A stretch of 64,000 bases of DNA from Flaccisagitta enflata (Eukaryota), in contig OZ231126.1 of NCBI GenBank assembly GCA_965153355.1, forward strand, positions 496,001 through 560,000. Reading direction: 5' to 3'. Below are positions 16,690 to 48,329 of this stretch, in pieces. Position 1 is the stretch's first letter, and every line of letters starts with the position of its first letter. Under the pieces are notes generated by a model. The model made no database searches. It was not told the origin of the DNA and was given only the letters and a program-made list of their open reading frames with translations. The translations under genes and the position numbers were made by a program.

Positions 16690-17059
16690 CTGCTACACGT
16701 TCTGTAAGCGTCTCGAGGAACACACGCTTTTTGCCTGACATTTATTCTGTCACTGTTCTTCCTTGATAATGCAATTGTCTTTATTTTTCTTTTTTTTTCG
16801 CTAACCACGGTTAAAACTTTGACTCTAAAAACCGATCTAAAAGCCGATCTCACATTTTCTCCGAACGCAAATCTTCAGGATATCTTCAAGATCGTCACCG
16901 AAAAACGTCTCTAAACTCAACTCCAAACACGTCTCTAAAATCAACTCTCAAAACATCTCCAACATCATCTCTACGAACATGTCTGCAATGGTCTTCATGA
17001 TATGAAACTACCAAAGTCTCTCAAGGGAGCTCTCTTAGACAGTTTGTGTCATTCAAATC

Positions 17060-17785
17060 ACTGTCATGGAGTTGCTCTCTTTAATGACAAGGTACTCACG
17101 CCGAATCATATCGCTGTCATCACTGTCATCAATGTCATCCCTATCATCACTGTCATGGAGTTGCTCTCTTTAATAACAAGGTACTCACGCCGAATCATAT
17201 TGCTGTCATCACTGTCATCAATGTCATCGCTATCATCTCTGTCATGGAGTTGCTCTCTTTAATGACAAGGTACTCACGCCGAATCATATCGCTGTCATCA
17301 CTGTCATCAATGTCATCGCTATCATCACTGTCATGGAGTTGCTCTCTTTAATGACAAGGTACTCACGCCAAATCATATCGCTGTCATCACTGTCATCAAT
17401 GTCATCGCTATCATCACTGTCATAGAGTTGCTCTCTTTAATGACAAGGTACTCACGCCGAATCATATTGCTGTCATCACTGTCATCAATGTCATCGCTAT
17501 CATCACTGTAATGGAGTTGCTCTTTTTAATGACAAGGTACTCACGCCGAATCATATCGCTGTCATACCTGTCATCGATGTCATCACTGTCATCACTGTAA
17601 TCACTGTCATGGAATTGCTCTTTTTAATGACTAAGTTCTCATATCAATTCATATCACCGTCATCACTGTCATCATAACCAAAGACGTAATTGTCACCACT
17701 TTACTCTTTTTTTAGCGCTATCATAAAATTACTCTCTTCAAGCAAAATGTACTCACGCTGAATCATATCGCTGTCATCACTGTTA
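17060..17785. repeat. 89-bp minisatellite, about 6 full copies plus degenerate copies
   Basis: GTTGCTCT recurs at 17071, 17160, 17249, 17338, 17427 and 17516. Confidence 0.92.
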
Positions 17786-38233: not shown

Positions 38234-38886
38234 AAGCACAAAGTCTATGTAGCACAGAATCACAAAAGTAATGATTATGAGAGTACATTAACTACATTAA
38301 GCACAGTGAGTAAAAAAAAAGAAACATTTACCAACCATATTGATTCCCTCTCTCTAATAGTAAAAGCATGAGCAGTTAATCTCACAGTCACTCTGTATGC
38401 TGGACAATTGTGGCCGTTTTCAGGTATACAATGTTCCTAGTAAAAGAAATTGTTTGATTTGAAAAGTTTCATGATAAATCAGCAATTATTTTTCTACAAC
38501 AGAACATTTTCAGACCATCACAGCCTGCTTACATAACCAAGTCGTAACATTGTATACCATGTTTCATTTCAAGAAAAGATATTTTTTCACCAACAGCCTG
38601 TATTCCTTCTTTACCAATTCCTCTGTCTTATTTATTCTCATCTGCATTATGATCTCCCTCTATCCAATCAAAATCTAATTCCTCTCTATTATGGATGTGG
38701 CTACATATTTGATTCTGAAAAGAAGAGACACAAAACTCAAGGCTCATTTTTTACAGTAAGTTGGTCAACCTAACAGTTGAGAACAAGAGGGACGGAACAT
38801 AAGGTGGCATATAGAGTCAGACAGATCAAGAGGGTCAGATTGGTTTGGTTAGGCCAGGTTAGGTTTAGGTTAGGTCAACTGTGCTA
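38234..38886 (-). pseudogene. Internally deleted tandem duplicate of the 3' part of the XKR gene
   Basis: 38234-38692 matches about 38887-39340; 38693-38886 matches about 42004-42187. Confidence 0.8.
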
Positions 38887-39274: not shown

Positions 39275-40393
39275 TTATTTATTCTCATCGGCATTATGAT
39301 CTCCCTCTTTCCAATCTAAATCTATTTCCTCTCTATTATGAGCTTCATCACTTCCATCAGCTTCCTCATCATCCCCTTCAAAATCTTCATCCTTTCCATC
39401 ATTCCCAAAATATTCATCCTCTCCTTCAAATTCTTCATTTTCTCCACAAAAATCTTCATCATCTTCTTCAATATCTTCTCTTCCATATTTTCCATCTCCT
39501 CCATCAATTTGATCGACAATATCTTCATTTTCCGCGACAAATTCTCCACCAAAATCTTCTTCCCCCTCCCCATTTACTTCTCCTCCACCACCGTTTCTTG
39601 CCTGTCCAATGTGGATACTCCGTTGCCCATCATCAGGATCTGTTTCCAACTCATCATCTCCGCCCCCTCTAACGTGGTCAACTCTTTTGACCTCCACCAC
39701 ACCATCTAGAACCTCATCGATATCCAAGTGAAACCTTGGCGAACAACATGATTTGGCGACCCTTCGAACCATCTCAACCAGCCAGAAGATGAGCGGAGCG
39801 GTAATGCGGGGGACAAATTCTCCAAAGCCAAAAATCAAAACGCCCAAAATAAGGTGTAGTCCCCAACAAGTGATGGTGAAGTAAAACAACTTGGCAGCTT
39901 TGATACCATCGAGCATATTGATGAGAAAAGTAAATGAAAAATGACTTATATACATAATGACCGCGATGAATGGGCAACATGCGAAACTAAGGTGAAGTAA
40001 AGTACGAGTCACGCGCCAACAAAGGCTGGGTTTAAGGGGAATAAACAAAATCAAAATGGACACCAGAAAACTCAGTAGATTGGACCCCCATAAAAACCAA
40101 TCGTAATAGTGCCACCAATCAGAAAAAGTAGTGTCAAATGTTTTGAATGGATCAAAGACGGCGTATCTGAATTGTGTCGTGACCATCGTGACGCCGCTTA
40201 ATAGGAAAAGCGCCAGAGGTGAGAGCGACGCCGCCGCTGGGTAATGGGGGCTCACGAAATGGGGGCTCACGAAATTGTGGCTTCGATGTGCGGCGAAAGA
40301 TTCCATGAGAGAGCGAGCCACCGTCAACGTGGAAGTGACGATAGATACGCTTTGGATGAAACCAATACCGGAATAATTGTCCCGCTCTTGCAG
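39275..40393 (-). CDS. XKR: XK-related protein, last exon (several TM helices and acidic tail)
   Basis: Acceptor ttcttattcaag|CTG in phase 0; GFIQSVSIVTSTLTVARSL fits the XK Q..S...S helix; open for 372 codons to TAA. Confidence 0.8.
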   Translation of the reverse strand: MQERDNYSGIGFIQSVSIVTSTLTVARSLMESFAAHRSHNFVSPHFVSPHYPAAASLSPLALFLLSGVTMVTTQFRYAVFDPFKTFDTTFSDWWHYYDWFLWGSNLLSFLVSILILFIPLKPSLCWRVTRTLLHLSFACCPFIAVIMYISHFSFTFLINMLDGIKAAKLFYFTITCWGLHLILGVLIFGFGEFVPRITAPLIFWLVEMVRRVAKSCCSPRFHLDIDEVLDGVVEVKRVDHVRGGGDDELETDPDDGQRSIHIGQARNGGGGEVNGEGEEDFGGEFVAENEDIVDQIDGGDGKYGREDIEEDDEDFCGENEEFEGEDEYFGNDGKDEDFEGDDEEADGSDEAHNREEIDLDWKEGDHNADENK

Positions 40394-40981
40394 CTTGAAT
40401 AAGAATGGAAAACACCCGGGGGGTGATAAAGAATGGAAATTGTTACTTGCTTACAATGATGGTAATGATGGCAATGATGGCAATGATTTATCTAGGATAA
40501 GCAAAAAGTCCAAAAACTGCGATAGACGCTGTAAAAGATAGAGCTATTCGAGGCACTCAGGAGTGAAGGCTTTTCAAATCTTTCTTGGGATTTTTTTTCT
40601 ATTCTTTCGCCACGATAAGACTTATAGCTTCCAAAAGAAATATAGAATAGAAAAATCGGTGACATAAATGAAGCCTTTCGAATTTGCAAGCAGGCAACGC
40701 AAATTGCATTTGTCCAGTTCAACGCGTTTGGAAGTAATTTAAAAAAGAGTGAAATCATGTCATCAGAAGATTTTGTAAAATTGGCAAAAGTGAAGCTGCA
40801 GTATTTCAGTTAATGTTGAATAGCTTTCAAAAGCATAGAGCTAGAGGGATGCGGTTTGCGTCAATCTCTTGCAAATTTGAAGGGCTATAATTGTCTTATC
40901 AATTTTTTGATGATTGGTTGATTCTAACCTGAGATATGCATGCATACTTACCGAAAGATTTTTTACCGCCGTTATGGTAGA

Positions 40982-41919: not shown

Positions 41920-42025
41920 TGTGAGATTTGTGCGAATTTGAACGCTGCACCACTGAGTAACAAGTTGAGGCAGGGATTCCAGAGCAATTTCGCCCATTTT
42001 CAAGGATGTGGCCACATATTTGATT
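41920..42025 (-). CDS. XKR: XK-related protein, exon with the family signature
   Basis: ttttcag|A ATC..LKMGEIALESLPQLVTQW..NLT|gtgagt. E-x3-ES-x-PQL is the conserved XK motif; phases 2 and 0 fit the neighbouring exons. Confidence 0.88.
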
Positions 42026-42837: not shown

Positions 42838-43572
42838 ACTATAACTATAACTATAACTATAACTATAAAGAGTTCTTAATTTGCAACTTGTTCAAAGATG
42901 TCATCTCCAGTTGGGCGGAGAATGAGAAATGCGGCAAATATATAAAGAATGACTATAACTATAACTATAACTATAACTATAACTATAACTATAGACAGTT
43001 CTTACTTGCAACTTGTTCAAAGATGTCATCTCCAGTTGGGCGAAGAATTAGAAATGCGGCAAATATGTAAAGAATGACTATAATTATAACTATAACTATA
43101 ACTTTAACTAAAACTTTAAACAGTTCTTACTTTGCAACTTGTTCAAAGATGTCATCTCTAGTTGGGGGAAGAATGAGAAATGCGGCAAATATGTAAAGAA
43201 TGACTGTAACTATAACTATAACTATAACTATAACTTTAACTAAAACTATAAACAGCTCTTACTTTGCAACTTGTTCAAAGATGTTGTCTCCAGTTGGGCG
43301 AAGAATGAGGAATGCGCCAAATATGTAAAGCATGACTGTAACTGTAACTATAACTATAACTTTGACTATAACCAGTTCTTACTTTGCAACTTGTTCAAAG
43401 ATATCATCTCCAGTTAGGCGAAGAATGTGAAATGCGCCAAATATATAAAGCATGACTATAAATGTAACTATAACTATAACTATGACTATAACCAGTTCTT
43501 ACTTTGCAACTTGTTCAAAGATGTTGTCTCCAGTTGGGCGAAGAATGATATATGCGGCAAATATGTAAAGAA
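42838..43572. repeat. ~120-bp tandem array x6: XKR exon 3' half, donor and (TAGTTA)n
   Basis: TGCAACTTGTTCAAAGAT at about 42882, 43007, 43133, 43265, 43385 and 43505; the last is the real exon. Confidence 0.92.
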
Positions 43573-43656
43573 CAACTGGGGCCATAAGCAAAGGCGCTGT
43601 GATCAAAGCGATGAATCTTAGCCCCAGAGGCAATGGGGCGAGATGGGTATGTCCAA
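43503..43656 (-). CDS. XKR: XK-related protein, internal exon (TM helix)
   Basis: ctacttcag|TT GGA..LRFIALITAPLLMAPVVLYIFAAYIILRPTGDNIFEQVA AA|gtaaga; phases 1 and 2. Confidence 0.82.
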
Positions 43657-46580: not shown

Positions 46581-47028
46581 CTTTTTGGGCAGCGGCCCCG
46601 AAGGGGCCGATGAGCTATGCTTCAATGCAGAAGCAATTTCTCCCTCTTCTTCTTCTCCGTCCACTTCCTCAGGTCTCAAATCCAATCTTGAAGCCCAAAA
46701 TCTATAACCAAATCTCAGTCTTATGACCCAAATCCCATCCTGAGGCCTGGGCCTAGAGACTAATTGTCAAGCCTCATGACGAAAATGGGTTGGGGTCTTG
46801 GAGAAAGGATTTGGGTCTTGACTAGAATTTGGGTCTGGAAGATGGGATTTAGACCTTGAGGCTGAGCTTTGGGCCTGGAGCCTGGGATTTAGGCCTTGAG
46901 GCTAGTTAGGGGGGGGGGTCGGAGGACATAGAAGGAGAAGGAGGAGAAGGAGAAGGAGAAAATTCCCCAAATGTGTGAAAGCATTTACTAGGTCATCGAC
47001 TCCTTCTTGGCCGCTGCACAAAAAAAAA
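46581..47028. mobile_element. Family A element with two head-type ends (palindromic)
   Basis: TTTTTGGGCAGCGGCC ... GGCCGCTGCACAAAAA; no 3' tail. Confidence 0.6.
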
Positions 47029-47048: not shown

Positions 47049-47162
47049 CTAATATGTATCTTAGCATGATGCAAAACTGCGCCAAGCCTCCCAAAGCGAT
47101 CCATGATGTCGTTAGTATGAAAAAAAGATCCACGTCCAGGTTTTCAATATATACATATATAA
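47049..47162 (-). CDS. XKR: XK-related protein, exon 1b (second TM helix)
   Basis: IYVYIENLDVDLFFILTTSWIALGGLAQFCIMLRYIL G|gtcagt; phase 1 joins 43656. The 5' boundary is inferred. Confidence 0.75.
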
Positions 47163-47177
47163 CTAGATATTGATTAA

Positions 47178-47789
47178 CCGGGTCATCAGCCTGAGATGCC
47201 GGATTCTGTTAAGCTTTTACCCAGAGATGCCACATATCTCGGATTTCATACTGATTGTCCTTTGAAGAGCAAAGATTGACGTTTTTTGTATCAAAATTTC
47301 ATCAAAATCGGTCAAGTAGTTCAGATTTTACAAGTCTTTGAAGTAAAAACTAGTTTCCTCTCAATGGCAGAATTTTCAATAAAAATCATGAAAGAGAGCG
47401 ACTTCAAATTTTTCTCTTTTTTTAACAGTTTGAGCTTGGGAACATGTTAATGGTCTAGTATGAAAAAAAATTAGATGTAGTTTCATAAATTTGTCAAGTC
47501 ACCTTTTACTTAGGACTAATCTTGTGTCCCTGGCACAAAATATTGCAAAATGAGGTAAAGGGGAAAAACGCCATTCCTCCATTTTCCCATCAAAAAACAG
47601 AAGTGGCAGAAAGGTTGTTTTTCACTTAAGTACATGTAAAATCTCAACTACTTGACCGATTTTGATGAAATTTTGATACAAAAAACGTCAATCTTTACTC
47701 TTTAAGAGACAATCAGTGTGAAATCCGTGATACATGGCATCTCAGAGTAAAAGCTTAACATTATCCGGCATCTCAGGCTGATGACCCGG
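47178..47789. mobile_element. Palindromic Tc1/mariner-type MITE inserted in XKR coding sequence
   Basis: CCGGGTCATCAGCCTGAGATGCCGGA ... TCCGGCATCTCAGGCTGATGACCCGG; flanks AA and TA. Confidence 0.88.
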
Positions 47790-47909
47790 TAGATTTATAT
47801 CTGGTTTTAGATATTCGTAAGCGAGTGCGAAATCAAAGGCAATGTCCACTATCACCAAAACTGCCGCCGCGCAGAGCAAAAACACTTGGCTCAATCGTTT
47901 CAACTCCAT
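47786..47909 (-). CDS. XKR: XK-related protein, exon 1a (start codon, first TM helix)
   Basis: ATG at 47909: MELKRLSQVFLLCAAAVLVIVDIAFDFALAYEYLKPDINL; the D-x3-D-x5-Y pattern is typical of XK TM1. The 3' boundary is inferred. Confidence 0.75.
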
Positions 47910-48216
47910 TGATCTCTAATCTCACTTATTGACGGGTAGGTAGGTAGATAGGTAGGTAGGTAGGTTGGTGCGTAGGTAGGTAAGTAGGTAAGTAGGTAAG
48001 TAGGTAGGTAGGTAGGTAGGTAGGTAGGTAAGTAGGTAGATAGGTAGGTAGGTAGGTAGGTAGGTAGGTAGGTAAGTAGGTAGGTAGGTAGGCCAATTCT
48101 TTCATGTGCGAAATTCAAAAGGAAGAAAAAATTTTGAAAATAAAAAGGTGGCATTGAGAGATGAAGAAAAAGACGTTTCTTTTAAATGAAAGAGCGCAAA
48201 TACTAAGGGCGATACG

Positions 48217-48329
<113 letters not shown>

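Follow-up and report, generated by a model that had tools for sequence, protein, structure and literature searches.

The interrupted gene and its relatives

The window, by which we mean the whole 64-kb stretch of DNA analysed here, carries on its minus strand a gene whose first exon is interrupted by a fold-back MITE. The whole of exon 1 spans 47909-47049, with the ATG at 47909, and the element follows codon 40. Removal of the MITE together with 2 bp (614 nt) restores the frame (..KPDINL/NQYLVIY.., the slash marking the junction here and below), and the MITE-less coding sequence then comprises 1626 nt, or 541 codons, in four exons joined across three phase-matched GT-AG introns. The middle exons 2 and 3 were located by tblastn of homologues. 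A two-exon model, with exon 1 joined to 40386, was dropped because alignment with homologues showed about 85 residues to be missing from it, including the ESxPQLxTQW motif. The parts of the gene are as follows.

47790..47909, minus strand: exon 1 part a, ATG and 40 codons (TM1 and the start of the loop), matching Pfam XK-related positions 1-26 at E 0.17
47049..47175, minus strand: exon 1 part b, 42 codons and 1 nt (remainder of the loop, and TM2), with donor TAG/GTCAGT
43503..43656, minus strand: exon 2, 154 nt, with acceptor ..CTTCAG/ and donor AAA/GTAAGA
41920..42025, minus strand: exon 3, 106 nt, encoding the ESxPQLxTQW motif, with donor ACA/GTGAGT
39275..40393, minus strand: exon 4, 372 codons and the stop, encoding the other TM helices and an acidic tail
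47742..47744, minus strand: premature TGA (codon 56), encountered if the MITE stays in the mRNA

Reading through into the MITE adds 15 further codons before this TGA. An earlier note on the same DNA, made from the letters of the sequence, had claimed that a 614-nt removal restores the frame, that read-through meets a TGA some 15 codons into the element and that roughly 500 downstream codons and their splice sites are intact. These claims agree with the 541-codon ORF obtained here, with the position of the stop at 47744-47742 and with the 501 codons that lie beyond the insertion.

The gene product appears to be a lineage-specific membrane protein that is only distantly XK-related. Exon 1 part a scores 11.3 bits against the Pfam XK-related profile (PF09815), below the cut-off of 24.8, and the exon 4 ORF has no Pfam match. 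A word-based protein search with the 391-codon ORF at 39275-40450 returned three close relatives (P0001-P0003), which are 81-95% identical to exon 4, and HMMER returned 33 more distant relatives at E <= 0.001, with 23-35% identity in an alignment of 22. The relative P0004, which matches exon 4 at E 3.5e-25 with 35% identity, passes the PF09815 gathering score (26.7 bits versus 24.8, profile positions 123-263), and an XK-related match is found in 2 of the 23 aligned family sequences. The best PDB sequence match of the family profile is XKR8, at E 0.35 and over the motif. An AF2 model of the membrane part of exon 4 reached a pLDDT of 88.6. When this model, which covers the protein without its N-terminal third, was compared with the PDB using Foldseek, nothing was returned at E <= 0.001; a wide VIA-align search gave generic helical bundles only (Z up to 10), and a protein atlas search gave no usable match. 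The XKR label that the gene had initially been given stands as a distant, transitive link through P0004 and the ESxPQL motif, but the gene's own pieces lie below the Pfam cut-off.

A search with the exon 1b ORF found four related ORFs in short ENA contigs (P0036-P0039). They begin at the same MELKR (in P0036 the start is internal) and continue through the loop and TM2, and, since their reading runs past the exon into intron 1, like that of the window, they are genomic. Exon 1 minus the MITE and 2 bp aligns with these ORFs with zero gaps over 82 residues (65 for P0036) at 76-85% identity, and this gapless colinearity indicates that the exon was formerly continuous and without an earlier intron. 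In the DNA run X3, a 245-nt contig (depth 7.1) lacks the MITE and connects 47164 with 47800 through 12 other letters; it is in frame and reads 9 nt (3 codons) shorter. With 8 other letters in 135 nt, the X3 contig represents a relative and not a proven allele of the locus, and the same reservation applies to the ORFs: the empty sites described here belong to relatives (the X3 contig and ORFs 76-85% identical) and not to proven same-locus alleles. The earlier note had argued that no intron preceded the element and had proposed a search for empty sites in alleles or orthologues; related sequences with an uninterrupted exon 1 were indeed found, in P0036-P0039 and in one X3 contig. Comparison of X3 contigs with the gene gave 10 classable differences, 5 synonymous and 5 not, which are too few, and drawn from a comparison of relatives, to inform on selection in the time since insertion.

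Several further repeats lie in and around the gene. Upstream, a (GGTA)n microsatellite of 39.5 units at 47935-48092 and a (GA)n microsatellite of 55 units at 48217-48326 start 26 nt from the ATG, so that little unique DNA remains in which a 5' UTR or core promoter could lie. A tandem array at 42838-43572 (period 120 nt, 5.9 copies, 88% matches) starts within exon 2 and carries repeats of that exon's 3' half, GTAAGA donor and an (ACTATA)n run included, into intron 2; the array peptide (..LYIFAA.ILRPTGD.IFEQVA.) appears in several minus-strand ORFs. Intron 1 contains an inverted pair at 46582-46617 and 46989-47024 (36 nt, 83% complementary), the second arm of which lies about 25 nt past the exon 1 donor. 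The motif that this pair encodes (..AAAPKGPMS.. / ..GQEGVDDL..) turns up again in ORFs throughout the window, as well as where P0036-P0039 read through into the intron, and is probably a SINE-like repeat. About 600 nt past the stop of the gene, 21 minus-strand residues at 38631-38693 are 95% identical to the C-terminal end of P0001, in what looks like the remnant of a neighbouring paralogue. Sequences near 38.2-39.0 kb and 41.8-42.2 kb are mutually repeated. Elsewhere in the window, at 17009-17094 on the plus strand, there is a full-length Rfam mir-46/mir-47/mir-281 precursor (49.9 bits versus a gathering score of 44.7), a family found in protostomes; its presence would put the source animal in that group.

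Could this copy, as one of several in its family, already have been a dispensable or decaying duplicate when the MITE arrived, in which case the insertion would amount to neutral decay? The several close relatives (P0001-P0003 and P0036-P0039), the paralogue C-terminal fragment just downstream and the tandem duplication of part of exon 2 into intron 2 are all compatible with such a history. We nevertheless give it little credence: no further lesion is present in the 541 codons or at the six splice sites, and the relatives may come from other species or populations in the metagenomes and not from the same genome.

The fold-back element, its target and its age

The element and its immediate flanks comprise the following features.

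47178..47789, no strand assigned: fold-back MITE, 612 nt (inverted-repeat scan, ORF list, blastn, fold z -21.7)
47763..47789, minus strand: TIR at the 5' end in gene orientation, 27 nt, containing the donor of the first candidate splice rescue described below
47178..47204, minus strand: TIR at the 3' end in gene orientation, containing the acceptor of the second candidate rescue
47790..47791, minus strand: left-hand copy of the 2-bp duplication of the target site, reading TA in gene orientation; an X16 contig of another copy continues through exactly these letters
47176..47177, minus strand: right-hand copy of that duplication, reading TT in gene orientation and so differing from TA by one base

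The palindromic MITE that the earlier note had placed in exon 1 is present there. Its boundaries were set by hand at 612 nt, and the terminal 27 nt at both ends are perfect inverted repeats. An inverted-repeat scan gave arms of 205 nt that are 85% complementary with a spacing of 248 nt; blastn aligned 172 nt of the arms at 89.5%, and the centre of about 270 nt is non-palindromic. Folded as RNA, the stretch reaches -315.7 kcal/mol compared with -137.5 +/- 8.2 for 20 shuffles (z -21.7). Exactly two occurrences of the 23-nt TIR core are present in the window, compared with 0 in 100 shuffles. No second MITE copy was detected in the window by blastn, the next match being just 22 nt long (E 0.009), and exact TIR scans of metagenome contigs, with 27 nt and with 21 nt, found 0 loci with other copies. 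The longest ORF within the element has at most 56 codons, and no Rfam family matches it at E <= 1. Being short (612 nt), non-coding, bounded by TIRs and abundant (see below), the element has the traits of the MITE class.

On the gene strand the flanks read TA/CCGGG...CCCGG/TT. The left dinucleotide is TA but the right one is TT, an imperfect duplication; the size of 2 bp put forward in the earlier note fits the frame. The loose-end consensus of other MITE copies in X3 has T before A/CCGGG, which points to TA as the probable target, with one base altered at this copy. Duplications of 3 bp (TWA) or 4 bp (TTAA) were rejected, as removal of 615 or 616 nt introduces stops or a frameshift and breaks the colinearity with P0036-P0039; it is on this ground that the duplication is taken to be 2 bp. 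An 8-bp duplication, of which 6 of 8 letters are alike, would fit the loop length of homologues less well than one of 2 bp. The host flanks at 47155-47177 and 47790-47812 are themselves partly complementary, and the inverted-repeat call reaches 23 nt past each TIR. This complementarity reflects a short ATATCTA-type repeat in the loop-coding sequence, and the same repeat makes the 8-nt flanks alike at 6 of 8 positions.

The MITE family is very abundant and this copy is young. The X3 pieces that match this copy at 95% or more number 592, with 287 at 99% or more and 305 at 95-99%. Summed X3 depth over bins of the MITE ranges from 977 to 34,689 compared with 7.1-25.9 on the exon flanks, a difference of two to three orders of magnitude, although these depths sum all organisms in the metagenome and are not a copy number. 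Every MITE bin is covered, arm-specific stretches included, and only 8 of the 612 MITE positions have another letter in at least 10% of the X3 depth. Since the arm-specific stretches are covered at high depth by near-identical pieces, the asymmetry of the arms is a trait of the family and the copy is young. It had been argued in the earlier note that diverged arms imply an old insertion, and that the intact downstream ORF in turn implies rescue. Neither argument survives: the arm differences were inherited from a family with many copies at least 95% alike, and for a young copy an intact downstream ORF is no evidence of selection or rescue. One observation sits less easily with this age, as TT in place of TA at the right duplication is unexpected for a very young insertion.

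Possible fates of the transcript

Two in-frame rescues by splicing had been proposed in the earlier note, and both exist as reading frames. The first uses donor CGG/GTCATC after 47786 and resumes at 47162, giving 538 codons; the second uses donor AAT/GTTAAG after 47760 and acceptor CTCAG/G, resuming at 47190 and giving 556 codons. Both are stop-free. Their sites are as follows.

47785-47784, minus strand: donor GT of rescue 1, inside the 5' TIR
47163..47164, minus strand: acceptor of rescue 1, a host AG
47758..47759, minus strand: donor GT of rescue 2 (AAT/GTTAAG)
47192-47191, minus strand: acceptor AG of rescue 2, inside the 3' TIR

Altogether, 17 GT/GC-AG pairs across the site preserve the frame without meeting a stop, and there is no GT-AG at the boundary of the MITE and its target-site duplication. 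Splice sites were scored by a simple consensus count, as matches to MAG/GTRAGT out of 9 for donors and as the pyrimidine fraction at -20..-4 for acceptors. The three introns of the gene have donors of 7/9 and pyrimidine fractions of 0.82-0.88, compared with donors of 5/9 for both rescues and acceptor fractions of 0.59 and 0.47. Cryptic sites inside the MITE are also stronger than those of the rescues: one donor, after 47503, scores 8/9, and two acceptors, from which reading would resume at 47454 and 47259, reach 0.76. The predicted fold places the donor of rescue 1 and the acceptor of rescue 2 inside the perfect 27-bp stem of the TIRs, and the donor of rescue 2 immediately interior to it. If the TIR donor were used together with the TIR acceptor, 4+13+2 = 19 nt would remain and shift the frame. 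The weak GTTAAG donor, 31 nt into the element, is present in both arms and, with the CTCAG acceptor 13 nt from the end, would leave 45 nt, a multiple of three, in either orientation.

None of the RNA reads or contigs examined covers exon 1. About 6% of the polyA RNA run X23 was read and gave 0 reads on the locus, too small a share to count for or against splicing. Metatranscriptome contigs from X15 and X16 contain the MITE only, with no exon flanks, and may derive from other copies or from DNA. A joint from 47301 to 47666 in one X15 contig, with a side of 21, is most simply an arm-to-arm mis-join and was rejected as splicing. When proteins were searched for longer relatives of exon 1b, none was returned that derives from a transcript and links exon 1 to exon 2.

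These data bear on whether the MITE is a newborn spliceosomal intron, in which weak GT-AG sites in or beside the TIRs would yield a working protein, with the fold-back perhaps juxtaposing the ends. Rescue 1 would swap four loop residues for one, and rescue 2 would insert 15. That both are in frame and free of stops is encouraging, as is the intact remainder of the gene, and the donor of the gene's own first intron is likewise GTC, as in rescue 1. The length of the loop varies in distant homologues, with about 43 residues in P0012 and 3 codons fewer in the X3 relative. Moreover, according to the available excerpts of the literature considered below, introners are enriched among aquatic organisms and are known from copepods, a sea urchin and a tunicate. 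On the other hand, transcript support is absent from the runs examined (about 6% of X23, and MITE-only contigs from X15 and X16), the rescue sites are weaker than those of the real introns and than the cryptic sites of the MITE, and three of the four are in or next to the perfect 27-bp stem. Loop length is fixed in the close relatives P0036-P0039, so losing 3 residues or gaining 15 might not go without effect. The argument that the gene has long survived the insertion also falls, given that the copy is young. On balance we judge a newborn intron unlikely.

More specifically, we consider it doubtful that this is an animal intron caught at birth, formed by a currently active MITE whose symmetric ends supply the weak GTTAAG donor and the CTCAG acceptor. 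On this reading the frame-preserving 45-nt footprint would arise in either orientation, the stem of about 170 bp would juxtapose the sites and exonic insertions would be tolerated as small loop insertions.

The reading that we favour, with moderate confidence, is that the gene has suffered a recent disruptive, at most leaky, insertion. A young copy of a very abundant, probably TA-targeting fold-back MITE has inserted into the TM1-TM2 loop codons of exon 1, and the rest of the gene would be intact by virtue of the recency of the insertion and not of rescue. If the MITE is retained in the mRNA, translation would stop at codon 56, upstream of three exon junctions, and the transcript would consequently be an expected target of nonsense-mediated decay; the stem of about 170 bp would, in addition, form long double-stranded RNA. 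These effects on mRNA, like those on fitness, are what we infer; the data themselves show the insertion, its youth, the intact gene model, the empty sites in relatives and the weakness of the rescue sites. The copy is accordingly most likely a recent loss-of-function or strongly hypomorphic form and may be polymorphic. The insertion may be tolerated through close relatives of the gene, with in-frame splicing that would be leaky at most; P0001-P0003, at 81-95% identity to exon 4, could buffer the loss. Counting against disruption are the otherwise flawless gene of 541 codons (which is also expected under a harmless insertion), the 17 in-frame pairs, the pair with the 45-nt footprint and the precedent of transposon-born introns in marine animals.

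Comparison with known systems and significance

Introners offer a close comparison for a newborn intron. Transposon-born introns are documented in marine animals (PMC9860276, PMC12130899), and introners are described, in the available parts of these sources, from Micromonas, Aureococcus, fungi and dinoflagellates as well as from copepods, a sea urchin and a tunicate (PMC11282704, PMC9860276, PMC12130899). As these excerpts present them, introners resemble the present element in being short, non-autonomous elements with TIRs and target-site duplications that belong to high-copy families, lie in coding sequence of aquatic hosts and have intronless counterparts in relatives. The traits seen here are TIRs with a 2-bp duplication (TA/TT), a near-identical multi-copy family and relatives in which the exon is uninterrupted. 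Introners are, however, defined by splicing, and one splice site lies in the element while the other often comes from the target-site duplication, resulting in clean removal. For this MITE, by contrast, splicing is only a candidate, there is no GT-AG at the boundary and the candidate sites would leave -9 or +45 nt. Work by Huff et al. from 2016 is cited in connection with introners.

In Fritillaria borealis, non-canonical introns derive from MITEs (Henriet et al. 2019, as covered in the available part of the review PMC11282704). They are similar in that MITEs with TIRs and target-site duplications occupy species-specific gene positions in a marine planktonic animal. They differ in that most are non-GT-AG and are handled by an adapted spliceosome, whereas the three established introns of the present gene are canonical GT-AG and give no sign of a relaxed spliceosome.

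A further possibility is that the hairpin is excised from RNA precisely, by a structure-guided and non-spliceosomal route that would restore the pre-insertion frame, in the manner of euglenid nonconventional introns. The extremely stable stem juxtaposes the two duplicated dinucleotides, and in euglenid introns, as outlined in the excerpts of PMC11282704, the TIRs pair in the RNA, the ends meet and the junctions carry repeats resembling target-site duplications. The terminal pairing there is short, however, whereas here a stem of about 170 bp lies in an animal gene and its excision is hypothetical. The process is described in those excerpts for euglenids and not for animals, and the three other introns of the gene are ordinary GT-AG. 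We regard such excision as very improbable indeed.

Transposons that are spliced out of exons provide another precedent, as with the Evelknievel retroelement in exon 13 of Arabidopsis CMT1, according to the part of the source available (PMC6238269). In such alleles, cryptic sites within or close to an exonic element allow all or part of it to be spliced from the pre-mRNA, producing a leaky allele, which is the same arrangement that the rescues considered here would require. The Ds and dSpm alleles of maize are also transposons spliced out of exons. Those cases rest on cDNA, whereas the present one is read from DNA.

As a transposable element, the MITE can be compared with TA-targeting MITEs of the Tc1/mariner-type ('Stowaway-like') class. 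In common with these it is about 600 nt long and non-coding, has perfect TIRs with TA by the ends, reaches very high copy number and folds back on itself. It departs from them in that one flanking dinucleotide is TT, and its placement in the superfamily is tentative.

Intron gain at this locus is a candidate reading and not an established one. If the MITE is not spliced, the locus represents an ordinary recent transposon knockout, and it then carries a caution: the age of an insertion cannot be read from diverged fold-back arms, nor rescue from an intact downstream ORF. If it is spliced, the locus would, going by the literature excerpts cited above, be a further case of an already known kind, transposon-born introns, and would be valued mainly as a freshly dated one. 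It would then record the birth of an intron as a dated single event, from a still-active MITE in a marine animal and with the empty site kept in relatives, and the mechanism, including the sites used and the role of the hairpin, would be directly testable at this locus.
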